A DNA stretch of 64,000 nt from Candidatus Caldarchaeum subterraneum (GCA_000270325.1 BA000048.1:515709-579708); one strand, 5' to 3'. Shown: positions 322-12,238, counted from the stretch's first letter. Notes: generated by a model from the letters alone, not told the origin. Program-made: numbers and translations.

Positions 322-693
322 TCACGGACTCGCTTTGCTGGCAACTTCTTTCAGCATCTTTAAAGCCTCCAACAGCATCTCCCGCGTCTCCCTCGAATCA
401 CGTGCAACAACCTCCAGAATCTCCAGACTCCTCTTGCTCTGCTCCGTCAAAACCTCCAAAACCTTCGTAACCCTCTCAACAAAAGCATCCATCCTGCTAA
501 CGAAATCCCTAAACTCCGACCGATAATCCCTAAACTCGCTACGAAAATCTCTGAACTCATTCCGGAAATCATTGAACTCACCTCTGAAATCGCGAAACTC
601 ACCCCTAAAGTCACGGAACTCATTTCTAAAATCTCTGAATTCTCCCCTGTAGTCGCGGAATTCCTCCCAGTATGTGAAGAATATTGCCTGCAT
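322..693 (-). CDS. Heptad-repeat protein (eight imperfect RDFRxEF repeats followed by a predicted helical tail), function unknown
   Basis: ORF table protein ...EFRDYRGEFRDFRNEFRDFRGEFRDFRGEFNDFRNEFRDFRSEFRDYRSEFRDF...; the reading frame stays open upstream to 823. Confidence 0.5.
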   Translation of the reverse strand: MQAIFFTYWEEFRDYRGEFRDFRNEFRDFRGEFRDFRGEFNDFRNEFRDFRSEFRDYRSEFRDFVSRMDAFVERVTKVLEVLTEQSKRSLEILEVVARDSRETREMLLEALKMLKEVASKASP

Positions 694-1003
694 GGCTCCG
701 AAGCCTTCCTGGAGCTCGTCGGCCAGTTTGTTGTAGCGTATTTGGAAGTGTTTGAGGTTTGGCTTGGGCCGTGTCTCGGCTATCTCTATTTTTTTTAATC
801 TTGGCCGGGGGAGGCGGGGTCTTTAAAGCTTCCATGAATCTGTTCAGCGTCTCTTCATCGCCTTGTGCAAAGATTGTAACGGTTCCGTCTTTTTCGTTCC
901 TCACGTAGCCAGCTAGCTCAAGCTCCTGCCCAAGCTCCAGCACATGGCGTCTGTAGCCGACGCGCTGCACTCTTCCCACGACCTTCATCAGGTAGGCCTT
1001 CAA
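626..1003 (-). CDS. acyP: Acylphosphatase with an apparent +1 frameshift in an A8/T8 run (789-796); as written the C-terminus is out of frame
   Basis: N-terminal 70 aa carry both acylphosphatase signatures (VVGRVQRVGYRRHV; GYVRNEKDGTVTIFAQG); the conserved C-terminal part (IEIAETRPKPNLKHFQIRY) is encoded in the adjacent frame immediately after the homopolymer. Confidence 0.7.
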   Translation of the reverse strand: MKAYLMKVVGRVQRVGYRRHVLELGQELELAGYVRNEKDGTVTIFAQGDEETLNRFMEALKTPPPPAKIKKNRDSRDTAQAKPQTLPNTLQQTGRRAPGRLRSHAGNILHILGGIPRLQGRIQRF

Positions 1004-1047: not shown

Positions 1048-1145
1048 CGCCGGGGGTGGGATTTGAACCCACGAGGCCTGTGTGGCCACGGGCTTTCATG
1101 TCTTGTCTCAAGGCCCGCCCCTTATCCTGGCTTGGGTACCCCGGC
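1048..1145 (-). tRNA. tRNA-Ser (anticodon UGA) with a 12-nt intron in the anticodon loop; type II tRNA with long variable arm
   Basis: Manual fold: acceptor GCCGGGG/CCCCGGC, anticodon stem CGGGC/GCCCG, loop CUUGAG-[intron]-A, variable-arm stem GGCC/GGCC, T-arm GTGGG-TTCAAAT-CCCAC, discriminator G; CCA not encoded. Confidence 0.7.
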
Positions 1146-1167: not shown

Positions 1168-1177
1168 TTTTTTATAT
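1168..1177 (-). promoter_or_regulatory. Putative TATA box (ATATAAAAA) about 28 nt upstream of tRNA-Ser
   Basis: A/T-rich box at the spacing expected for an archaeal promoter; it overlaps the stop codon of the neighbouring gene. Confidence 0.3.
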
Positions 1178-2008
1178 GGTTGATGTTTTTGCGAGGTTGA
1201 GGATTGCCAGGGTGTAGGCGAGGGCTTCTTCTGTTCTGATTGTTTTGACTCCTTGGTTGGGTGCTGTGTTGACTGTATGGGTGAAGAGTCTGTTGTACTC
1301 GAGTCCGTGGGCCCGTGCTATTTCGTGGAGGCCTTTGTCGGCGGCTCCGAAGACTACGCATGTTTGGGTGGATTCTTTTAGCCGTTGGGCGACTGTGGCG
1401 TAGACTTGGTTGATTGGTTCGCCGAGGCGGGAGGTGGCTAGCCTGAATGTGTATGGTTTGAGGGCTTCTTCTAGGCTTTTGACGACACGTGTCCTGAACC
1501 CTGTGTAGGTTTCGCCTGATTTTTTGCCGACAACCGAGTACTTGACACGGCCCTCCTTAACCCGGACCCGTAGAGTGACTATCGTGTTTTTGGGGAGCTT
1601 TCGCGGGATTTTCAGCGGCTTTCCCATTCCCGCCTCGAGGAGCGATGTCTGCCCAGAAGCTGTGACAAGTGCTTGTCTGTAGTGTGTTCCCTCTTTTTTC
1701 AACGCGTCTGCCTCGGGGTGGGTCGGTATGTTGAGGGGTGGCAGGAGGCCTGCGTAGCGGAGGCTTGGCTTGAGGGGATATACTCTGGAGCGCAGGTAGG
1801 GGGCTGTGACGAGGTAGTCGAGAAGCTCCTTTATCAGTAGAGCGTTTCGGAGACGCGGTGCCCCGGGCTCGTCGGGGTATAGAACAAGCTCATCGACCCT
1901 GAAGGTGGCGAGAACTCTGCCGACAAACCCTATTTTCATAGTGGCTTCGCGGAAGCTGGGCACCTCCGCCGTGAAGGAATGTGGAAGAAACACTGCGAAT
2001 TTTTTCAT
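1172..2008 (-). CDS. Putative SPOUT-class RNA methyltransferase (DUF171/COG2106-like)
   Basis: 278-aa ORF; C-terminal VVFGAADKGLHEI...NTAPNQGVKTIRTEEAL resembles the SPOUT knot region; assignment from memory of the family, not searched. Confidence 0.45.
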   Translation of the reverse strand: MKKFAVFLPHSFTAEVPSFREATMKIGFVGRVLATFRVDELVLYPDEPGAPRLRNALLIKELLDYLVTAPYLRSRVYPLKPSLRYAGLLPPLNIPTHPEADALKKEGTHYRQALVTASGQTSLLEAGMGKPLKIPRKLPKNTIVTLRVRVKEGRVKYSVVGKKSGETYTGFRTRVVKSLEEALKPYTFRLATSRLGEPINQVYATVAQRLKESTQTCVVFGAADKGLHEIARAHGLEYNRLFTHTVNTAPNQGVKTIRTEEALAYTLAILNLAKTSTI

Positions 2009-2050: not shown

Positions 2051-2491
2051 CTATATGTCGAGGACGAAACGCACCTTGTTTTTCTCCGTGTCTATCTCCA
2101 TGAGTGCGTAGGTTGGTGACTTCACCGCTGTGCCTGTCTGATGTTTTTCCCTGTTGTAGTTTTCTCCCCATAACGTGGCCTCGAGCCTGTATTCTCCGTT
2201 TCTCATGATTTTGTTGACCTTTATCTCGGTGGCGACGATGTTGTCTATCTCGAATTTGTGGAGGAGTTTTTCGAGCCAGTCGTAGAGAAGCTCCATCAGG
2301 TCTTGTCCACGTGCCTCGACTGATAGGGAGACGGTTTTCTCCGAAGCGTTCAGCACTAGTGTTTTGAAGAGGGCCAGTCCAGCTTGCTCAAACGCCTCCT
2401 CCAACGATGAGCCATATGCCTCGATGTAGATGTCGGCCATGTGGGGGAGCTGGTGGAACCCCTTCCGGGACATGCTCATAGTTTCTAACAA
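2051..2491 (-). CDS. Archease
   Basis: N-terminal FHQLPHMADIYIEAYGSSLEEAFEQAGLAL matches the archease signature (YEYLEHTADIKFRAYG...); size about 140 aa. Confidence 0.7.
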   Translation of the reverse strand: MLETMSMSRKGFHQLPHMADIYIEAYGSSLEEAFEQAGLALFKTLVLNASEKTVSLSVEARGQDLMELLYDWLEKLLHKFEIDNIVATEIKVNKIMRNGEYRLEATLWGENYNREKHQTGTAVKSPTYALMEIDTEKNKVRFVLDI

Positions 2492-2533: not shown

Positions 2534-2926
2534 ATGGCTCGAAGGGATGAGGTGGAGGTGTTGAGGCGTAGGGGTGTGGAGTTTCTTGAGATGGCTGAGA
2601 AAGCGTTGGCAGACAAGAAGGTTGACTTCATGCTGGAGCAGGCTGCCCAGCTCTACCTCAAGTCCGCTCTTCTCAAACTAGTCGGAGAATATAGCAGGAC
2701 TCATAGCTTGAGGCGTCTGGTGTGGGAGCTGGCCGAGGCTTCGAGAGACGATGAGCTGAGAAAGTTTGGAGAAGAGAGGAGAAGTGTTCTCTCGAGTTTG
2801 GAGGATGTCTATATTATGGCGAGGTATTTTCCGAAGGAATATTCCGAGATGGATGCGGCGGAGTTTTTAGAAGTTGTCCGCGAGCTGTTTAGGCTGGTCG
2901 GCAGGGTGGCGGGTTTCCCAGCATGA
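2534..2926 (+). CDS. HEPN-domain protein (HEPN/MNT module)
   Basis: THSLRRL and C-terminal YIMARYFP motifs; overlaps the following nucleotidyltransferase gene by 4 nt. Confidence 0.65.
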   Translation: MARRDEVEVLRRRGVEFLEMAEKALADKKVDFMLEQAAQLYLKSALLKLVGEYSRTHSLRRLVWELAEASRDDELRKFGEERRSVLSSLEDVYIMARYFPKEYSEMDAAEFLEVVRELFRLVGRVAGFPA

Positions 2927-3258
2927 TAGAGACTGCGCGTAGGAGGGCTGAGATGGTTAGGCGCTGGAGAGAATTTGTCGGGATGTTGGCTGAGGCTGTT
3001 AGAAAGGTTTTGGGGGATGCGGATGTGTATGTGTTTGGCAGCGTTGTCACGGGAGAGTGTGTGGCGTCGAGCGATGTGGATGTCTTGGTTGTCTCGGACA
3101 GGGTTCCCGAGTCGATGCTTGAACGCGGTGCCTTGAAGGTGGAGATTGAAGATGCCGCGGGGCTTCCCGTCTACCACCCCTTCGAGCTTCACTTCGTCAA
3201 GCCCGATGAGGCCATGCACTATTTCAAGAAAATTGGGCGAAACATTTTGAGGGTTTAG
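2923..3258 (+). CDS. Minimal nucleotidyltransferase (MNT) partner of HEPN
   Basis: VFGSVVTGECVASSDVDVLVV = GS...DxD nucleotidyltransferase motif. Confidence 0.7.
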   Translation: MIETARRRAEMVRRWREFVGMLAEAVRKVLGDADVYVFGSVVTGECVASSDVDVLVVSDRVPESMLERGALKVEIEDAAGLPVYHPFELHFVKPDEAMHYFKKIGRNILRV

Positions 3259-4313
3259 TACCACTGGTCTTCTTCGCCGACGACTGTTTGGCTTCTTCTC
3301 CTCATTATGACTGTTGCGGCGACCGCGAGGACGGCTATGCCGGTTACGGTGCCGTAGACTATGAGCTGGGCTGTTTCATGTGATAGGCTGGGTGTGGTGA
3401 TTTCTGTGGTTATGGGGGTTGTGGTGGTTGTCGTGGTCGTTGATGTGGTTGCTTCGTTGATGCTCAGGGTTATGGTGTAGGGGCCTCCTCCGCCCACTCC
3501 GCCTTGGTTAGACACCCTGATGTAGTAGGTTTTCTCAGCTGCGTCCTGTGTTTCCAGGCTCACCGCCGCTTCACCGCTGGTGTTGGTTCTGTTGCTTCTA
3601 AGCCCGTAGCCTGTCTGGTCGAGGATGACGAGTTCATAGATGTTTCCAGGCTGTGTCGTCAGTGTCGCGGTTAATTGTTTCCCTTTTCCAAGCACCGCTG
3701 TGAGGACATATGTGTCTACGTAGTCTAGTCCTTCGCTGGAGTTGGTTAAATAGCCTGAGATGATGGTTGTTTCCCCTGTTCTCAACGCTCCCAGGGGGGT
3801 TGCTTTTTCGAGTTTGTCGGCGGCTTCTCTTCCACCTGTGTCCACTAGCCGCTCGATTCCCAGCGTGATGACGTAGTCGGCTTTGGCGGGTCTCGCTTCT
3901 GAGAATATTCCTATTTTGAAGCAGAGCGTGGTTGAGGTGTTTTCGCCGAAGTTGCTGTGTGCCCAGCTGTAGACGTACTCCAGCGGGCCTCCTGCCTGAA
4001 TGGTCTGCACTCCGCCTATGCGGGAGAACTGGCTGGGCCTTATCTCCCACATCAGCAACGTGTTAAACCCTGTTGACGTGTTTGTGGTAACGGTTACTCT
4101 GAGGACTAGGCGTTCACCGGGTCTCAGGTTCTCGAACCTGTAAAAATCCTCTCTAAGCCGTCCGGCGAGCGTGGCTTCAATGGGTGGAAGCGTGTCCCCG
4201 GCCAGGTTTATCCTTTTGTCTGTTGTGATGCAGGGGTCGCTTGTCTGAGCAGATACAGCTGTGAAGGCGGCTAACAAAACAACGATTGTCAGAAGGGCTG
4301 TTGTTTCACGCAT
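3255..4313 (-). CDS. Cell-surface protein with signal peptide, Thr-rich stalk and C-terminal TM anchor
   Basis: N-terminal MRETTALLTIVVLLAAFTAVSAQ, linker TTSTTTTTTTTPITTEITTP, C-terminal AQLIVYGTVTGIAVLAVAATVIMRRR; many N-x-S/T sequons. Confidence 0.6.
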   Translation of the reverse strand: MRETTALLTIVVLLAAFTAVSAQTSDPCITTDKRINLAGDTLPPIEATLAGRLREDFYRFENLRPGERLVLRVTVTTNTSTGFNTLLMWEIRPSQFSRIGGVQTIQAGGPLEYVYSWAHSNFGENTSTTLCFKIGIFSEARPAKADYVITLGIERLVDTGGREAADKLEKATPLGALRTGETTIISGYLTNSSEGLDYVDTYVLTAVLGKGKQLTATLTTQPGNIYELVILDQTGYGLRSNRTNTSGEAAVSLETQDAAEKTYYIRVSNQGGVGGGGPYTITLSINEATTSTTTTTTTTPITTEITTPSLSHETAQLIVYGTVTGIAVLAVAATVIMRRRSQTVVGEEDQWY

Positions 4314-4447
4314 TCCAGCTGGTTTTTTCCCCAGTTCCTAAAAACGTTTTCCGTTTTGATTTGTGTCGAAAATATCTCCTCTATACTTTGAGCTAGGGTT
4401 TTGACGGATTATAAAAAATTTGAAGGGGGTTTAAAAAAGGTGGGTGT

Positions 4448-7400
4448 TTATTTCTTTGGTGGTGCTGCTGGGTAGATGCCGAGGCGGCGTCCTCTCCAGC
4501 GGATGTATTCGCTGACGATGACGACTACGACGATGACCAGCAGTATGAGGCCGATGATCAGCGCGAGGAACGTGGCGAGGGTCATGGGTACGCCGAACAG
4601 TATGGTGTAGAGGTCGAGGACGATTGTTGCGCTTCTAACGCCTCTAGCTACGTTGGCTGAGTTGCTGAACTGTTCGTAGGATGCTCTTACTGAGTAGTCT
4701 GCGCCCACGACTTTGGAGAAGACCGCCGAACCGCTGGCGTCTGTGGCCGCTGTGGCTATTGTTGTTCCTCCTCTCACCAGCTCAACAATGGCGCCCTGTA
4801 TCGGCTGTCCTGCAGCGCCCTTGACAATTACGGCGATGTCGTATATGCCTGCCTGTATGGTTGCCGATGTCCGGGAGGCGGTGAACCTTACACGGTCTCC
4901 GCCGATAGTTGTGCCATCCTTGGAAACCTCTATCTGGTATTCGTTGTCGAGCGGTACTTGTCCGATGATGACGACGCCTTGGCTGTCTGTTGAGCCTACT
5001 TGTTGTCCGCCGAACCTTATGGCTGCGCCTGCCACGGGTCTACCGTCGAAGTCGACTACTGTCAGGGTTACGTCGTCTACGGGTATGACTATGCTGCCTC
5101 TGCTCTGTAGGCCTGCCGGCGTGTCTCTTACCGCTGCTCTCGCTGTTGTTCCGTATGGGCTGGTCCATTCGACGGTGAAGTCATAGGTTCTGCCGTCGGG
5201 TACGCGGAGGATTGTGAATATGCTGTCGGGTCTTAGCTGTATGTCCTGTTCTCTGACTAGGTTGGGTGAGACGCTTACTCTAGCGCCTGCCACGGGTCTG
5301 CCCTGTCTGTCGACGACGTTGAAGCTGAGGTCTCTGAGTGCGAGGACGACTGTGCCCTCAACGGTTCCGACGTTGGTTCTGCTGACGTCGAAGGTTCTTC
5401 TGCCGACTTCTTCACCGTTTGCGTCGGGCCAGAGGGCGACGATGTCGTAGGAGCTTCTGGCGAGGCGTTTGGCTTCGAAGATGGCTCCTTGTCCACGTAT
5501 GATGAAGTCGTCGGGCAGTGCTAGGCTGGGTGCGCTGAAGACGTATGCTGGGTCGGCTGGTCTCTGTGCGTCGCCGTAGACGAATCTTATCCTGAGGTCG
5601 AAGATGCGTGTGATGACGTCGAAGCTTCTGCCCCAGCCTGCCGGCGGGCAGCTGGCGAGTGCCTCTAGGACTCCTGCGGTGTAGTTGTATGAGCCATCTC
5701 CTGCATGTCTACAGACATCGGCTCGGAACCATCCGTCTCCCGTTGGCCAGGGTCCTGCTTCGGCTGTGTATGCGAAGCCGAGAGGTATGTCTGGTTTCTG
5801 TGTTTCCTGTGTGGTTTCGTCGTCTCTGCTGTCATATGCTATGGGCCATCTGGCGAAGCTGTTGACTGGCCATGTGGGTTCTCCGTTGGCGCCCTGTCCG
5901 AGGTAGAGGACTCTCTGGATGAAGACTCCTCCGGGCTTTCTAATGGGCATGGGCACTATTCTGCCGTCGGGTCCTGCATAGCTCCATGCGGCTGATTTGC
6001 CTGTCTGTGCGTCGATTATCTGGTAGAAGGCTCCGGGCAGTGGCCTCCCGTTGAAGTCGGTGATTCTGGCCGAGACGTTCTGGAACTCGAACATCTTGAT
6101 GAAGGGTCTGTGTGCTCTGTTGTCTGGGTCGTTGCTCACTACCGTGACCGTTGCGGTGCGTGCGACGCCTTCATATGGTCTGCCGTAGCCCATGTACTGT
6201 ATGCCTAGGTCTACGCCAGGCACCTGTAGCTGGTCGCCGACGTGTAGGTTTACGGGCTGTCCTGTGAGTGGGTCGATGGCTTGGCTGACCCAGTTTCTCC
6301 AGTAGTTGCTGGTTGTTCCTCTGTTGGGGTTGTCTGCGCCTGCTTGTCCTGTGCCGTCGTTGTACCATATGCTTGGTGGCGGTGAGACCTCGTCTATGAC
6401 GAGGGTGCTGCCGCCCCATATGACTGTCGAGGGTGTGTCTCCGCTGGTGACCGTTACGAGTCCAACTGGTTTGCCGGAGATGCATATGTTGACTGTCTTG
6501 TCGCCGACTGTGATGGTTCCCGCTGTTGTTACGGCGTCGATGGGTTTCGGTGCGAATGTTGCGCCAAGAGGTGGCACTATTCTACCTTTGACGATGTATC
6601 CTAGGAGCGGCCCGCAATCGTAGCTGCCGAGCTCGTAGTCGCCTACCTGCCAGAAGACGGGGATGTCGACGTCTGTGGCGTTGAGCTTGATGGCGACGAC
6701 TTTGCTGCCTGGTGTTGGTGTGGCTGTCCATGTCCGTGTCAACGCGTAGCCAGGTATCGGCTGGAACTGTCCTGTTCCTGTTGTTCCTCTGTAGAATGTG
6801 ATGTCGAAGGGCGGGTGTCCGAACAGCATCCACGCGTCTGGGAATTGGGCGGGTATTCTCCAGACCAGTTCATAGTGGTCGCGCTGCCATGCTCCGTTGT
6901 TATATTTTGGCGATGATGGGTCGATGGGTAGCTGGTCGCTCCATACGCTGATGCGGTACTGTATTCTGCTGTTTTCCTGGTTGGTGAGATGCGGGTGGCG
7001 TCGATCGTAGCCGGTCGGGACTGGGTTGTATGGCCATCCGTCAATCATTCTGCCGTCTTCATAGCTTGGGTAGGGTATGTCCCATGAGCGTGTTACATCG
7101 TCGTAGACCCATCTGCCGGCTGAAGAGTCGAATACCAGGTCCCAGTCGCTCTTGGTGAAGCGCTCTGATGTCGGTAGCCATGGGAGTGTGAGCTGGCCTG
7201 TTGTCCACTTGGCTGCTCCACGTGTCTCGGGTACGGCTGTGTATGTCCATGTTCTGCGGGCGTGGTCGACTGTTATCCTGCCTGGGAAGACTGTATTGCC
7301 GTCTGTTACGTTGAGCCACCAGATTCTTGCGTAGAGGTCTTTGACGGGTCGGTCTTTGTTGGCGCTTATGGCGAGGACGAATGTCACATCGGCGATGGCT

Positions 7401-10400
7401 ACTTTGTCAACCGAGTAGCCTCTCTTGGTGAGGTTGAAGGCGTCTTTGTAGACGATGCTGCTGTTGAGGTACCAGTAAACAGTCAACGTGTAGTTAACAA
7501 CGTTTGTCCCGAGGATGTTCTCCATGGCTTCCTGTGTCGGGTAGAGGAGTGTGAGGTTGCCGTCACGTCCTGTCTTGTAGAGAACTGAGGAGGAGCGATC
7601 CACTGTACCGCTATCGTCGTAGTATACGTCGAGCTGTACGACTGCGTATGGTATGGGTCTTGCGAGGTCTTCGTCTTTGAGGTTGAGGGTTATGAAGCCT
7701 ACCGGTATGGGTACTGTTACGACTTCTTTCTCGAACACCAGTGTTGTGGGTCTTGTCGGAACCTCGATGTACCTCTTTCCTTTGAATGGTGTTGATATCT
7801 CTTCGACTGCTCCGGCTGCGACCGCTTGCTCCCATCTCCATCTCTGCTGGTTCCAGAGGCCTTCATTGCCTACGACTGTGAAGTTGTGGGTGGGCCACTT
7901 GCCATTGGCTGTTTCGTTGACCGCTGGGTTGAAGAACTCTCTTATGAGGAAGCTGTCTCCTGGCCTAACGTCTCCTCCTGGGCTGGTTAGCGGTCCCTTC
8001 TGCGTTGTCAGCCATCCGCTGCCTGTTAGCCCTGCTTTGTCGTAGAATCTTGCCCATGGCTGTTCGCCTCTGGTGAACTCGAGCGGGTAGACGTAGCTGT
8101 AGAAGGTGAGGTCTTGTTTGCGGTAGGTGCCGTTCCACCAGATGTTGCTGCTGTGCTGGCTGTCTGCTTTGAGCCAAGTGGTTAGGAGGGTGTCTTCGGT
8201 CCATTTGCTGACGAAGAGCGATGAGAAGACTCCGTCTTCGGGTATGAACATCTCCATGTTGACGCCGTTGTCGTTGACTATGTGGTAGGTGGCGTTGCCT
8301 ATGCGGCGTGCTTCGTTGAGGTAGTCGAAGTCGCCGTCGACGATGCGCTGTTTGAAGGTGTGGGCCCATGTCAGCAGGTCTATCCTGACGGGTCCGCATG
8401 TCTTGTAGAGTGTTGCGTTGCCGATTGGGTTGAGGTTGGGGTCGGTGACGAATTCACCGTTCCATGTCATGTAGACTCTGAGGACGACTCTGTCATTGAC
8501 CTGGCCTGCAGGAGTCTTTCTGATGCTCGGTGGGCTGCTGTGGCTTGTCCAGTCAATCTTGATCTCATAGTCGACGGGCACGGTTCTGCCTGGCCACTTG
8601 CTGTTGCCTGGTGTCTGTTGCGTCTCGGGGTCTCCTGTTGTTACTGTTGTTACTGTTATGTTGTAGAGTGCGCTGGGCATCTTGTAGAAGACGTAGCGGA
8701 CGTCTCCGTAGGTCTTGAGGCCGTTTGACCTGGATATGCCGCCGAAGAAGTGGTCGATTCTGTAGCGGAAGAACTGGCTGAATGCGAGGGTTGTGTTGAA
8801 TTTGTCAGTGTTGGTGTCGCCTGTTGGGTCCATGGTTTCGAGGAAGTATAGGCGGCTGCCTGTTAGCGGGTGTACACCGACCCATGTGAGGGTGATGTTG
8901 AGCCTGGGTATCCTGTTGTCTTGGTTGTAGTCCCATGTTGTGAATATGAAGTCGTTGATGAGGGCTGTGAGTTTGATGGGTGAGTCGATGTTGCTGTCGA
9001 CGGTGAATGTTAGGCTTCCGTCGGGGTTGAGCGGCAGTGTGTCGTCGCCTATTCTAGCGTCTGTGAACTTGACCCATACACCCTTCCACCATACGCCGTC
9101 GATTGTGTATTGTCCTCCTGCTAGGTAGCCGAAGTCGAGGGCGCCTGTGCTGTCGAGCTGTGTTACGTAGGGTGTTGCGGGTGATGGTGGCACTACTTTG
9201 ACGAATGCTTCTCTGGAGAGTGGGCTGTTTTCGCAGTCGACGAAGACGAGCTTGACTTTGTAGATGCGGAGGACGAGGTCCTCCATGATGGTGTGGGTTA
9301 GTTTGTCGACGGTGGCTTCTCCGACGGGTGTGCCGTCGAAGGTGACGGTGACCATGTATGCGAGGTCTTCGGGCAGCTGGTAGAATACTGCCCATCCTTC
9401 GCCGTGCTGGTCATAGCTCCACTGTAGGCTGCCTGTGGATGGGAAGAAGTCGGGTATCAGGCTGGCTCCTGTCTTGGTTATTGGTGGTCCGTTGCCGCGC
9501 TGTAGGGTGATGGCTGTGTTGGCGGCTGGAGCCGGGTTGCCGAGGTTGTCAACAAGCCTATAGGCAAGATCGTGAACATTAGCCGTAATGTAGACGAGAC
9601 CCGCTCTTGCCAACGCTATGTCAGGAGCCTTGTGCGGCGCAAGACTCTGCAGTATTACTACCTGTCTCTTTGTGGCGTTGAGTATCGCGAATGTACCTGA
9701 CTGAGGCTGGCCTGAGAAGAGCATTCCTCCGACGAAATCATTGTAGGTGAACGCTGGATCCAATGTCTGTATGTCTGTGTTGTTTGATGATACAAGTGTC
9801 CTGATTGTCTGTGAACCCGGTGGCCCTGGCCATATCTCGACCTCGGCTGCACCGGTCTCGCCGGTAGTAGTTACGTTGAACCTTCTGATGGATGTGCTGT
9901 CTATTACCCCGTCTGGTCCGATGTCCTGCCAACCTGCGAGAGCGTAGGAAATGTTTCCGACTATCGGCTGGTTGGTGGCTGCGTCATGGTATTTGATGCT
10001 AGCTATAACGCCGCTGAAGGTGAAGGGCGTTCTTATGAAGCCGCCATGTGTTGCGTTTTCAACTATGTCTACTCGTAGGTCTACTCCAGGCGGATAGTTG
10101 ACGAATATGTCGAAGGTGCCTGTTAGCGGGTTGTAGTTCTGCAACCGCATTCCTATGGGGGTGTTTGAGGAGATCATCAGTGTAACCGGTCCACGGATTG
10201 GCCTCGGTGTTCCGAGGGGTCCTCGGCTGAGGGTTACGGTGACCTCGTTGTGTATCTTGATGAGGACTGTGTTGTTTCCTAGAACTACGTTCGGGACTAT
10301 CCATCCGTTGTATGTGGTTGTGTTGGTGGCTGCTATGGCGTAGGGGTTGCGTACTCTTACGCTGTCGACGAGGACTGCGGAGCCGCCGTATCCGTTTCTT

Positions 10401-12238
10401 GCTCCGCCTTTCCACTTGACCTGTATCTCGAAGCCGCCCCACCGCGGGTCATCGCTGAGCTGTCTTGTCTTCATGTAGGTGATTTCGGGAATGAGGGCGC
10501 TCCAGTTCATGCCCGCGTTTATCCATGGTCCCTGCCAGCTTCCGCCCCACGCCTGCTCAAAGTATCCGCCTGGTCTCCATGCTGGAGAGACGTCGTCTGC
10601 TGGGTTGAAGAAGTAGCTGGCGTTGAGGCTTCCTCTGAGGCCCCAGTTGGTTCCGTTGGGGAAACGGGCGAATTTGCTGTACTGGCCTAGGTATCCAGGC
10701 CACTTGTGCGGGTCGTTGGTGCAGCCGTCGCTGCCCGTGGTGTGTATGCTGTGGGCCAGGTAGTAGGGTACATCAGCTGATGTCTTGAAGTTGAGGGTGA
10801 CCTCTGCCCCGACCATCTTATCGCCTATCCATGGATGCTGGATGGCAAGGTCAGCGTCCTGCACACAGAACCGAGCATAAAACACCGTGTTATTCTCAAA
10901 GTTCGCTATCGATGGCCCAACGGTCTCAACATTCGCAGTAGTGTCAGTGCCCTCCCATGTTGGCAGCAAGGGCCTAGGTGGGTCTATATACACTGTCTCG
11001 TTAAGTACGAGGCTGAACGGCCCAGCGGGAACACCTGTGATGCCTCCCTGCGTAATCGTTGGGTTGACCGATGGGTTTGATGGATAGGCTCCGAACAGAG
11101 GCCTTATCTTGCCGGTGGCAGGGTCGGTAGCATACTCGGGAGCATTTGGACCACCTGTTTGGTTGTATTCGTTTCCTACGTAGAAGGTCTGGTTGACGAG
11201 TACGGTCTCCCACCAGACACGCTTGGTGGCGTTGAGATGCGGAGCCTCGATAAAACCGTTGTTATCTTCAGGGTCAGGAATACCTCCTTCGAATGGTTCT
11301 CTGGTGCCGAGGTTGATGCTCTGCAGCGGTATTGGGACGAGGCGGTTCTGTGCAAACTTGCCTGAACCCACACCAGCGGAGCGTGGATAGATTTCACGAG
11401 TGTATCTGCTCTGGCCATCATCTCCGGTTATAGCCGCCTGTATCAGTGATTGTGTGGAGCTGGCGTCTGTGTGGTCGGTGTCGTATATGAATATCGTCGC
11501 ATAAGTCAACACATCATTGGTGGCGTACCATGTGTGTTCGTGGAAGAGCTTGAAGATGTAGGCCGCGCGAGCCAACCAAGCCCTCTGAGGATCGTTGTGG
11601 TTAATCTGGAAAGTTATTGGACCGGATGCATAGTTTACGTTGTCCACGGGCCCTGACCCGAGAGGCGGAAAGATGTTCCAGTTAAATGGACCACCGTGGG
11701 TATCTTCTATGCCGTCATCGTTTATAGTGCTGTTGAAAGCTGAGAACCCGAACTTGCTTAGGAAGCTCGGTGTGGGGTTGACTGTTAGCCAGTAGACTAT
11801 GATTCCTCGGAATGGGTTGCCCTCGCCGATACACTCACCCTGATAGCTCTTCGCCTTCACAATAATGGTAACGTTCTCCCAGCCAGCAGGCCACGAAACC
11901 CTGATGAAACCAGTGCCGTTAGGACTGCCCGCTCTAATCGGACCCTCCCAACTATCCAAAGGCGCAGTACTTGCTCCACTTGGGTTCTTGAACTTATACA
12001 GCTCAACACAGACATTCGTCACATTATACCTATCAGCAAAGCCAACACCAGTCGGCTGCACAGGAGGAGCACCAGCTACATAAGGTGCACCATCCCACGA
12101 AGCCGTCACTATTTTGAGCCATGCGGTGTAGTTCGGCTGCGCAAACGCCGGCGTGACAATCGCTGCTCCAAGGAAAGCCGTCGGAAGCGCTAGCAGCAAA
12201 GCTAGCAAAACTGCCTGACTTTTTCCAATCATCAACAC
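4448..12238 (-). CDS. Giant (2596 aa) secreted, membrane-anchored surface protein; S-layer or adhesin candidate
   Basis: Uninterrupted 7.8 kb ORF; N-terminal signal peptide, dense N-x-S/T sequons, C-terminal repeats of the ...DGRPVAGA... type (carboxypeptidase-regulatory-like), C-terminal TM helix plus basic tail. Confidence 0.8.
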   Translation of the reverse strand: MLMIGKSQAVLLALLLALPTAFLGAAIVTPAFAQPNYTAWLKIVTASWDGAPYVAGAPPVQPTGVGFADRYNVTNVCVELYKFKNPSGASTAPLDSWEGPIRAGSPNGTGFIRVSWPAGWENVTIIVKAKSYQGECIGEGNPFRGIIVYWLTVNPTPSFLSKFGFSAFNSTINDDGIEDTHGGPFNWNIFPPLGSGPVDNVNYASGPITFQINHNDPQRAWLARAAYIFKLFHEHTWYATNDVLTYATIFIYDTDHTDASSTQSLIQAAITGDDGQSRYTREIYPRSAGVGSGKFAQNRLVPIPLQSINLGTREPFEGGIPDPEDNNGFIEAPHLNATKRVWWETVLVNQTFYVGNEYNQTGGPNAPEYATDPATGKIRPLFGAYPSNPSVNPTITQGGITGVPAGPFSLVLNETVYIDPPRPLLPTWEGTDTTANVETVGPSIANFENNTVFYARFCVQDADLAIQHPWIGDKMVGAEVTLNFKTSADVPYYLAHSIHTTGSDGCTNDPHKWPGYLGQYSKFARFPNGTNWGLRGSLNASYFFNPADDVSPAWRPGGYFEQAWGGSWQGPWINAGMNWSALIPEITYMKTRQLSDDPRWGGFEIQVKWKGGARNGYGGSAVLVDSVRVRNPYAIAATNTTTYNGWIVPNVVLGNNTVLIKIHNEVTVTLSRGPLGTPRPIRGPVTLMISSNTPIGMRLQNYNPLTGTFDIFVNYPPGVDLRVDIVENATHGGFIRTPFTFSGVIASIKYHDAATNQPIVGNISYALAGWQDIGPDGVIDSTSIRRFNVTTTGETGAAEVEIWPGPPGSQTIRTLVSSNNTDIQTLDPAFTYNDFVGGMLFSGQPQSGTFAILNATKRQVVILQSLAPHKAPDIALARAGLVYITANVHDLAYRLVDNLGNPAPAANTAITLQRGNGPPITKTGASLIPDFFPSTGSLQWSYDQHGEGWAVFYQLPEDLAYMVTVTFDGTPVGEATVDKLTHTIMEDLVLRIYKVKLVFVDCENSPLSREAFVKVVPPSPATPYVTQLDSTGALDFGYLAGGQYTIDGVWWKGVWVKFTDARIGDDTLPLNPDGSLTFTVDSNIDSPIKLTALINDFIFTTWDYNQDNRIPRLNITLTWVGVHPLTGSRLYFLETMDPTGDTNTDKFNTTLAFSQFFRYRIDHFFGGISRSNGLKTYGDVRYVFYKMPSALYNITVTTVTTGDPETQQTPGNSKWPGRTVPVDYEIKIDWTSHSSPPSIRKTPAGQVNDRVVLRVYMTWNGEFVTDPNLNPIGNATLYKTCGPVRIDLLTWAHTFKQRIVDGDFDYLNEARRIGNATYHIVNDNGVNMEMFIPEDGVFSSLFVSKWTEDTLLTTWLKADSQHSSNIWWNGTYRKQDLTFYSYVYPLEFTRGEQPWARFYDKAGLTGSGWLTTQKGPLTSPGGDVRPGDSFLIREFFNPAVNETANGKWPTHNFTVVGNEGLWNQQRWRWEQAVAAGAVEEISTPFKGKRYIEVPTRPTTLVFEKEVVTVPIPVGFITLNLKDEDLARPIPYAVVQLDVYYDDSGTVDRSSSVLYKTGRDGNLTLLYPTQEAMENILGTNVVNYTLTVYWYLNSSIVYKDAFNLTKRGYSVDKVAIADVTFVLAISANKDRPVKDLYARIWWLNVTDGNTVFPGRITVDHARRTWTYTAVPETRGAAKWTTGQLTLPWLPTSERFTKSDWDLVFDSSAGRWVYDDVTRSWDIPYPSYEDGRMIDGWPYNPVPTGYDRRHPHLTNQENSRIQYRISVWSDQLPIDPSSPKYNNGAWQRDHYELVWRIPAQFPDAWMLFGHPPFDITFYRGTTGTGQFQPIPGYALTRTWTATPTPGSKVVAIKLNATDVDIPVFWQVGDYELGSYDCGPLLGYIVKGRIVPPLGATFAPKPIDAVTTAGTITVGDKTVNICISGKPVGLVTVTSGDTPSTVIWGGSTLVIDEVSPPPSIWYNDGTGQAGADNPNRGTTSNYWRNWVSQAIDPLTGQPVNLHVGDQLQVPGVDLGIQYMGYGRPYEGVARTATVTVVSNDPDNRAHRPFIKMFEFQNVSARITDFNGRPLPGAFYQIIDAQTGKSAAWSYAGPDGRIVPMPIRKPGGVFIQRVLYLGQGANGEPTWPVNSFARWPIAYDSRDDETTQETQKPDIPLGFAYTAEAGPWPTGDGWFRADVCRHAGDGSYNYTAGVLEALASCPPAGWGRSFDVITRIFDLRIRFVYGDAQRPADPAYVFSAPSLALPDDFIIRGQGAIFEAKRLARSSYDIVALWPDANGEEVGRRTFDVSRTNVGTVEGTVVLALRDLSFNVVDRQGRPVAGARVSVSPNLVREQDIQLRPDSIFTILRVPDGRTYDFTVEWTSPYGTTARAAVRDTPAGLQSRGSIVIPVDDVTLTVVDFDGRPVAGAAIRFGGQQVGSTDSQGVVIIGQVPLDNEYQIEVSKDGTTIGGDRVRFTASRTSATIQAGIYDIAVIVKGAAGQPIQGAIVELVRGGTTIATAATDASGSAVFSKVVGADYSVRASYEQFSNSANVARGVRSATIVLDLYTILFGVPMTLATFLALIIGLILLVIVVVVIVSEYIRWRGRRLGIYPAAPPKK

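Follow-up and report, generated by a model that had tools for sequence, protein, structure and literature searches.

A tandem aromatic heptad array in an acylphosphatase-like protein family of Thermoproteota

The array and the split gene

The 64,000-nucleotide (nt) stretch of the Candidatus Caldarchaeum subterraneum genome described here (GCA_000270325.1, BA000048.1:515709-579708) contains, close to its left end, a minus-strand gene whose product carries a tandem array of seven-residue units rich in Phe, Tyr and charged residues. The whole stretch is referred to as the window, and positions are counted from its first nucleotide. As it stands in this sequence the gene is split into two overlapping minus-strand open reading frames (ORFs), 626..1003 and 322..693, the first of which has an acylphosphatase-like start and the second of which contains the array. 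Upstream of it are a serine tRNA gene and genes for a PF02598 homologue and an archease (Table 1).

Table 1. Features of the heptad-array gene and of its upstream neighbours in the window
Feature	Position	Strand	Basis or remark
Whole gene (acylphosphatase-like head, helical stalk, tail)	322..1003	minus	About 226 codons after deletion of one A from A8
Acylphosphatase-like domain, beta-alpha-beta-beta-alpha-beta	739..985	minus	Pfam, Foldseek, residue alignments
Homopolymer with one surplus base (T8 on the plus strand, A8 in the gene)	789..796	minus	Alignment to three assemblies
Predicted single alpha-helix, about 130 residues, from the ELQEGFGAMQ linker to the C-terminus	331..726	minus	AlphaFold2, register
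123-codon ORF	322..693	minus	Translation MQAIFFTYWEEF-RDYRGEF-RDFRNEF-RDFRGEF-RDFRGEF-NDFRNEF-RDFRSEF-RDYRSEF-RDFVSRM-DAFVERV...
Degenerate leading heptad FTYWEEF, register kept	658..678	minus	Translation, register analysis
Seven perfect heptads [R/N]-D-[F/Y]-R-x-E-F	511..657	minus	Translation, TRF, motif search
Degenerate trailing heptad RDFVSRM, register kept	490..510	minus	Translation, register analysis
Type 1 C-terminal tail DAFVERVTKVLEVL...ARDSRETREMLLEALKMLKEVASKASP, helical, heptad-phased, with a conserved polar RDSRETR patch	325..489	minus	Tail alignment
Type II tRNA-Ser gene, anticodon UGA (read from loop CUUGAGA), anticodon-loop intron of about 12-15 nt	1048..1145	minus	43.2 bits, 200-nt search
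PF02598 SPOUT-type 'putative RNA methyltransferase' homologue	1172..2008	minus	Upstream of the family gene
Archease	2051..2491	minus	Upstream of the family gene

The array consists of seven perfect heptads, with one degenerate heptad on either side in the same register. The seven occurrences of D[FY]RxEF in a six-frame translation of the window all fall within it, spaced exactly 21 nt apart, and the motif is absent from all 50 codon-shuffled windows (0 in each). A first-pass annotation of this DNA had listed eight tandem heptads; translation of the minus strand confirms their sequences as written, and seven of them are full units, whereas the eighth (RDFVSRM) is degenerate, as is the leading FTYWEEF.

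At the DNA level the periodicity is weak, with TRF reporting 72-80% matches at a period of 21 and 69% at a period of 42. Codon pairs compared among the seven units show 69 synonymous differences, 32 non-synonymous differences and 46 identities, and the mean nucleotide identity of the units is 64.6%, compared with 67.0 +/- 2.3% expected for the same peptides written with random codons drawn from the window's own codon usage. The identity of the units is thus indistinguishable from random synonymous coding and holds no memory of recent duplication. These values bear out the earlier description of an array conserved as protein and diversified as DNA, and show no trace of the recent slippage that it had argued against. 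Its suggestion that the DNA had been made resistant to recombination is not supported, as the divergence is the neutral expectation for old repeats and not significantly below it, and heptads have been gained and lost between relatives.

The reading frame shifts at the A8 run, after ...PPPPAKIKK. In the upstream ORF the sequence beyond ...EALKTPPPPAKIKK continues for 50 residues without any match, and the true continuation, IEIAETRPKPNLKHFQIRY...LADELQEGFGAMQAIFF..., is found in the +1 frame. The gene starts either at the TTG at 1003 (orthologues begin MKAYL...) or at the ATG at 988. Removing one A from the run gives a 226-residue protein, referred to below as the corrected protein, in which the match to the Pfam Acylphosphatase model extends to the end of the model. 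A database protein encoded by a single ORF (P0002, 221 aa) is 100% identical to it and is encoded on three contigs from three different sequencing runs (L001-L003), all of which have A7. Apart from the A7, two of these contigs match the window at every base of about 790 nt, and the third (L003) comes close to this, with seven single-nucleotide polymorphisms (SNPs) in the coding region, 7/7 of them synonymous; A8 versus A7 is the sole indel in the 790 nt aligned to the three contigs. The number of units does not differ among these near-identical strains. All 83 of the other clustered loci carry the family ORF, and the frameshift is private to the window sequence, because the two-frame arrangement was found at none of the related loci examined. 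The extra A is most likely an assembly or sequencing error of homopolymer length, or a clone-specific mutation, and not a programmed event. For the annotation of this genome, the two overlapping ORFs represent one gene interrupted by a homopolymer-length difference.

Family, head and predicted helix

The protein belongs to a family with more than 500 members across Thermoproteota archaea. A search with its C-terminal 155 residues returned 517 proteins (the best 120 of the 517 listed); nearly all of the relatives found have an acylphosphatase domain, and those that are named at all in their sources are named 'acylphosphatase'. A scan of one genome per species gave 104 loci, the hosts being Caldarchaeales (including Candidatus Caldarchaeum subterraneum, 88% identity), Geocrenenecus, Wolframiiraptor, Nitrososphaeria including Nitrosocaldus, Bathyarchaeia, Brockarchaeota, Geothermarchaeota and Culexmicrobium, and several genomes encode two or three copies. 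The phmmer search with the 123-aa ORF against 1.8 billion representatives gave 369 hits. Ten of these, read as non-family hits (P0121, P0124, P0125, P0128, P0130, P0132, P0134, P0137, P0140 and P0148), were rejected, since their repeats are unrelated and none of the ten appeared to be a homologue; P0126, a fusion to archease described below, was the one useful exception. Our literature search returned no paper on this family, nor one on a comparable tandem aromatic zipper in nature.

Two typical family members are found on short contigs of metagenome-assembled genomes (MAGs) assigned to bacteria, a Caldilineae bin (L037) and a candidate division Kazan bin (L054), the latter copy being nearly identical to a Culexmicrobium copy (L044). 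Both probably reflect contamination of the bins and not transfer to bacteria.

The members share a common plan, in which the head (about 90 residues) is followed by the invariant linker ELQEGFGAMQ.IF..YW.EF, then by 0 to 16 heptads, and finally by either a tail or an archease domain. There are at least three types of tail: type 1, present in the window (...RDSRETREML...), type 2 (...KYGEISEKLT.ILETL.RESRETREML...) and type 3 (...ILDERLARMERDIAEIKAKIGL). A tail profile found no relative among all PDB sequences (best E = 0.26), and in Pfam the tail has sub-threshold coiled-coil matches and nothing above threshold. For the protein as a whole, the Pfam and NCBIfam scans gave just sub-threshold generic coiled-coil families beyond the head and the Halo_GVPC model considered below.

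The head matches Pfam Acylphosphatase (PF00708) with 87.1 bits against a cut-off of 22.5, covering profile positions 4-85 of 85, and this full-length match is obtained only when the frameshift is corrected. Foldseek aligns the head with solved acylphosphatases at target-normalised TM-scores of 0.86-0.89, root-mean-square deviations (rmsd) of 1.0-1.2 A and 29-40% identity (e.g. 8JFS, TM-score 0.89, rmsd 1.2 A), and in the search of the model against the PDB nothing other than the head was matched. Seven residues are invariant in 69 family sequences (G5, V7, Q8, G11, R13, R14 and N31 in P0002 numbering); of these, R13 and N31 align with the Arg and Asn that are catalytic in solved acylphosphatases, in the phosphate loop and the GxVxN motif, respectively. 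The head thus has the full fold and the catalytic Arg/Asn pair of PF00708 and of the acylphosphatase-like N-terminal domain of HypF. It departs from the canonical loop V-x-G-x-V-Q-G-V-x-F-R: its phosphate loop is GRVQRVGYRR, and unlike in canonical acylphosphatases an Arg (R9) replaces the Gly of VQGV in at least 90% of members. It also differs in context, as canonical acylphosphatases are single domains of 90-100 residues, whereas the family protein adds a helix of about 130 residues. We therefore describe the head as acylphosphatase-like, with the catalytic-type Arg and Asn kept and acyl-phosphate hydrolysis as a putative activity.

The composition of the heptad was tabulated from 1,107 heptads in 186 proteins, the units having been chosen with a loose motif filter that inflates the figures somewhat. 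Unit position 1 (heptad b) is R in 91%; position 2 (c) is D in 72% and G in 15%; position 3 (d) is Y in 50% and F in 48%; position 4 (e) is R in 75% and V in 24%; position 5, the solvent-facing f, is variable (Q, G, N, E, D, S or K); position 6 (g) is E in 99%; and position 7 (a) is F in 99%. The aromatic residues are spaced alternately three and four apart and therefore occupy the a and d positions of a classical heptad. In P0002 the linker, the array and the tail, down to its final turn, keep this one register without interruption over about 19 heptads, and hydrophobic residues make up 87% of the a/d positions, 16% of b/c/f and 32% of e/g. All of the charged pairs at i/i+3 and i/i+4 within the helix are like-charged (R1-R4, D2-E6, R4-R1' and E6-D2'), and the 49-residue array has a net charge of -1.

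Spacing across the family is quantised in heptads. The linker and tail motifs lie 1 mod 7 residues apart in 88/88 proteins with a type 2 tail. Among the first 78 proteins measured this spacing is 1 mod 7 in 64 and 4 mod 7 in 12, and the mixed other tails are not uniform, with distances of 1, 4, 5 and 6 mod 7 in 9, 12, 1 and 2 proteins. In the tail alignment a 3-residue indel distinguishes type 1 from type 2, which may explain part of the 4 mod 7 class; larger insertions in the tail are of 14 residues, and some relatives have a repeat super-period of 14 residues.

AlphaFold2 models P0002 as an acylphosphatase fold followed by an unbroken helix at residues 88-219 (132 residues), with a mean predicted local distance difference test (pLDDT) score of 80, the tail scoring 79-87 and the repeat 60-75. 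The independent model of P0076, which has another type of tail, likewise has an acylphosphatase fold and then a helix at residues 95-203 (109 residues; mean pLDDT 84). No signal peptide or membrane segment was found in the family protein sequence.

The repeat is under purifying selection at the level of the protein. Comparing the window gene with its L005 relative (88% protein identity) by the Nei-Gojobori method gives ratios of non-synonymous to synonymous substitution rates (dN/dS) of 0.03 for the head plus linker and 0.09 for six orthologous heptads, and synonymous sites between units are saturated. The value for the tail is 0.70, where dS is unexpectedly low. These results, together with the 7/7 synonymous strain SNPs, favour the selected structural role that the first-pass annotation had proposed for the repeat. 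The window has seven units, compared with nine in L005 and ten in P0001/L004 (81% protein identity), its two closest relatives. Most units are one-to-one orthologous by their DNA (e.g. window unit 3 and L004 unit 6, identical at 21/21 nt), with two extra internal units in L005 and three in L004, and in L004 adjacent unit pairs are identical to the next pair at 18/21 positions, the trace of a 42-nt duplication. The array is thus old and constrained in this genome and, to judge from these alignments, heptads have been gained and lost in phase over longer times.

The dS values against L005 vary along the gene: 0.28 in the head, 0.68 in the repeats and 0.05 in the tail (325-489, minus strand), where there are 2 synonymous changes in 60 codons. 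The low value in the tail might reflect a recent recombination tract or a constraint acting on the DNA. On contig L001 the next gene begins 57 nt past the stop codon.

The proposed stalk and its alternatives

We consider it probable that the array forms part of a parallel, in-register, homo-oligomeric coiled-coil stalk with an all-aromatic core, linking head to tail and tuned in length by whole heptads. In this model a long alpha-helix, of which the 21-nt units specify the central part, would assemble with its copies as a 'phenylalanine/tyrosine zipper' (a, Phe; d, Phe or Tyr; e, Arg; g, Glu) and join the N-terminal acylphosphatase-like head to the conserved C-terminal tail. The stalk would gather several heads and set them at a distance from the tails that grows by about 1 nm per heptad; from standard helix geometry, the seven units would span about 7 nm and the whole helix about 19 nm. 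Its length would have been tuned in evolution by the gain and loss of whole heptads. The helix predictions, heptad composition and unbroken register all fit the charged/aromatic stalk that had been offered as one possibility in the first-pass annotation. The coiled-coil model is further favoured by the quantisation of length in heptads, by the selection acting on the units and by the modular pairing of head and array with different C-terminal parts.

The parallel orientation is suggested by the pattern of charges, since Glu at g and Arg at e' would form attractive g-e' pairs in a parallel bundle and would clash (E-E, R-R) in an antiparallel one. A strand number greater than two is suggested by the likeness to engineered Phe zippers. 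The best PDB sequence match of the repeat is the engineered Lpp-56 phenylalanine zipper (2GUV, five chains, E = 0.003; 2GUS, E = 0.009), the alignment placing each Phe in phase over 49 residues.

Several observations weigh against the coiled-coil model. The AlphaFold models are of monomers only, and their pLDDT within the repeat is moderate; Tyr at half of the d positions would put a hydroxyl inside a supposedly dry core; the strand number is argued purely by analogy; the Halo_GVPC model scores above its cut-off in several members (26.7-35.4 bits against 22.4), which would be compatible with an amphipathic helix that binds a surface; and clustering of the genes at 84 loci gave no neighbour conserved across the family.

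That the helix instead lies flat against some other assembly of proteins, in the manner of GvpC on the shell of gas vesicles, is decidedly unlikely in our view. Halo_GVPC (PF05465) is the only family other than that of the head to exceed its curated cut-off, with 26.7 bits for the corrected protein and up to 35.4 in relatives (18.6, below the cut-off, for the 123-aa ORF), and in one Bathyarchaeia MAG (L073) gvpA, a gvpN-like AAA gene and gvpO begin about 1 kb downstream of the family gene. The match, however, spans about 21 of the 32 model residues and its score accumulates over the DF(R)xEF-type repeat, the array has a period of 7 (or 14) residues and not of about 32, and an exact seven-residue stripe winds round a straight helix and so is better suited to supercoiling than to a flat surface. 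A GvpA signature is absent from the window and was found at one of the 88 loci searched, L073 itself, where another repeat protein takes the slot right after gvpA and a 211-aa ORF in the opposite orientation stands between the family gene and the cluster. An isolated helix of the stable single alpha-helix (SAH, or ER-K-like) kind, acting as a monomeric rigid spacer, would agree with the one long helix of the monomer models and with four of the seven heptad residues being charged; we regard it as unlikely, since like-charged i/i+3 and i/i+4 pairs are the reverse of the SAH pattern and disfavour such a helix, and the continuous Phe/Tyr seam would face solvent. A nucleic-acid-binding array, in particular an RNA-binding one, was the other role raised at the outset. 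It draws on the two Arg in each heptad, on surroundings related to RNA (the tRNA gene, the PF02598 RNA methyltransferase homologue and the archease) and on the fusion of head and heptads to archease in another lineage. We find it unlikely too: each heptad has two acidic residues for its two Arg, so that every Arg is offset by an Asp or Glu and the array is near neutral, which disfavours a polyanion-binding surface; the aromatics lie on the a/d seam and would be buried in any bundle; no known RNA-binding family was matched in the Pfam and NCBIfam scans; and the context is tied to the protein as a whole and not to the repeat specifically.

Two further explanations concern the gene rather than the helix. 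The array could be a non-functional low-complexity product of recent replication slippage, or the gene a dead remnant, given that repeat number varies among relatives and that the window copy is out of frame at A8. This is very improbable: unit identity at the random-codon level speaks against recent duplication, the dN/dS of 0.09 and the conservation of the motif in more than 500 proteins of several archaeal orders speak against decay, and the ORF is intact in three near-identical assemblies, with no further lesion. Slightly less probable still is that A8 is a programmed +1 frameshift or transcriptional-slippage site controlling the amount of full-length protein. The eight A's do stand exactly at the junction, with the upstream and downstream frames both open across it, but the near-identical strains have A7 and a plain ORF, and the related loci examined lack the two-frame arrangement. 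On this evidence we rejected programmed frameshifting, a single-alpha-helix spacer, recent slippage and membership of the GvpC family.

In L073 the interval 5974-11872 takes in the family gene and the gas-vesicle cluster. The cluster contains gvpA (7576-7806), a 183-aa repeat protein at the GvpC position (7845-8396), the gvpN-like AAA_5 gene (10162-11187) and gvpO (11570-11872), and the opposite 211-aa ORF is at 6775-7410. We take the Halo_GVPC similarity as probably reflecting convergent composition, and the adjacency in L073 as probably coincidental; gas-vesicle genes in Bathyarchaeia may be of interest in their own right.

The aromatic coiled-coil stalk has parallels among known systems. 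Variable-length coiled coils with an aliphatic core, extracellular or periplasmic, are found in Braun's lipoprotein Lpp and in the stalks of trimeric autotransporters; like these, the family stalk changes by whole heptads and joins a head to an anchoring or interaction end, but its core is aromatic and the sequence has no signal peptide or membrane segment. The halobacterial GvpC repeat (PF05465) is likewise an acidic/aromatic amphipathic helical repeat with DF..EF-type spacing, from which the family differs in its period and in lacking a gvp context in the window and at all but one related locus.

Among engineered peptides there are coiled coils whose core positions are all aromatic, and there the aromatic residues switch the bundle to four or five strands. 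The Lpp-56 constructs that carry Phe throughout a and d are reported to form bundles of four and of five strands (Liu et al. 2006, J Mol Biol 361:168), and a related Trp-zipper is reported to be a pentamer (Liu et al. 2004, PNAS 101:16156; cited in PMC4634320). The Lpp-56 zippers share with the family stalk an aromatic residue at all a/d heptad positions, but they are 56-residue laboratory constructs, whereas the stalk is natural, conserved across archaeal orders and 0-16 heptads long, has Tyr at half of d, keeps its Glu(g)/Arg(e) pair fixed, and connects two other modules; the design is the same and there is no homology. The phenylalanine zipper of APS/SH2-B is described as a short helix-loop-helix with 10 Phe that forms a four-helix dimer (Dhe-Paganon et al. 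2004, cited in PMC4634320). It is, as we propose for the family stalk, a natural helical element that oligomerises with Phe side chains stacked in the core, but unlike the stalk it is not a tandem heptad array and does not vary in length.

The acylphosphatase fold and the heptad coiled coil are known parts; the all-aromatic core as a conserved, length-variable natural module, the overall architecture and the fusion to archease appear to be undescribed. Should the fuller and rather unlikely proposal given at the end of the next section be right, nature would be using rules of coiled-coil design that have hitherto come from engineered peptides alone, and what is annotated as a housekeeping 'acylphosphatase' would do another job. 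The family would be a natural test set for how aromatic cores set oligomer state and thermostability, and its stalk might be put to use as a scaffold that is modular and programmable in length. The analysis also flags, as two- or three-module proteins, more than 500 whose annotation is plainly 'acylphosphatase'.

Architectural variants and gene neighbourhood

In the family at large, what follows head plus heptads is one of at least three tails or an archease domain. Two loci have two family members within a few kb of each other, L012 (2055-2771 and 5983-6849) and L044 (2282-2908 and 4671-5330). In one of the paired copies the loop is canonical (VQGVGYR/IQAVGYR), the head insert is longer and the linker differs, and the second copy in L044 has a type 2 tail and zero aromatic heptads. 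These copies show head, stalk and tail to be modules that are shuffled.

In Nitrosopumilales and Nitrosocaldus relatives (L080, L075, L082 and L084) the aromatic heptads are reduced to 0-4, and other repeats replace them in phase, e.g. DIKEMKT heptads or 21-residue SRTDANFADLKQELRSFA units. The stalk is thus retained in these ammonia oxidisers and its core chemistry altered.

Between the family gene and the PF02598/archease pair of the window sits the tRNA-Ser gene, which was missed by ARAGORN and by the whole-window Rfam gathering scan. The Logan contigs L001-L003 all terminate inside this tRNA gene or just past it.

The position of the family gene downstream of archease and PF02598 is shared by seven to eight Caldarchaeales loci including the window (the archease and PF02598 observations come from L005, L008, L010, L011, L012, L076 and L086). 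Head, 3-13 heptads and archease also occur in one polypeptide in five protein clusters (P0126 and P0269-P0272) from ENA and JGI metagenomes, and one such fusion gene adjoins a PF02598 gene (L086). RtcB was found near none of the loci. In the neighbourhood clustering, two apparently conserved neighbour families were rejected as antisense ORFs of the repeat itself, and there was no conserved partner.

The archease synteny and fusions hint at a role in RNA processing. The link is one of guilt by association, which supports proposing a test and not a function, and the partners it offers for that test are archease and the PF02598 RNA methyltransferase homologue. A fuller proposal, that a natural, length-tunable Phe/Tyr zipper forming a parallel bundle of four or five strands clusters the heads within a machinery, peculiar to Thermoproteota, for the archease-linked repair or modification of RNA, is speculative and in our judgement rather unlikely to hold in all its parts.

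Beyond the archease gene the window encodes, on the plus strand at 2534-3258, a HEPN domain protein (130 aa) overlapping a minimal nucleotidyltransferase (MNT; 111 aa) by 4 nt, a typical HEPN-MNT toxin-antitoxin-like pair. The minus-strand interval 3255-12238 holds a 352-aa protein with an apparent signal-peptide N-terminus, a Thr-rich stretch, a C-terminal hydrophobic segment and no Pfam match, after which comes a 2,596-aa ORF whose lone Pfam hit is a CarboxypepD_reg Ig-like domain near its C-terminus; both products are probably cell-surface proteins.

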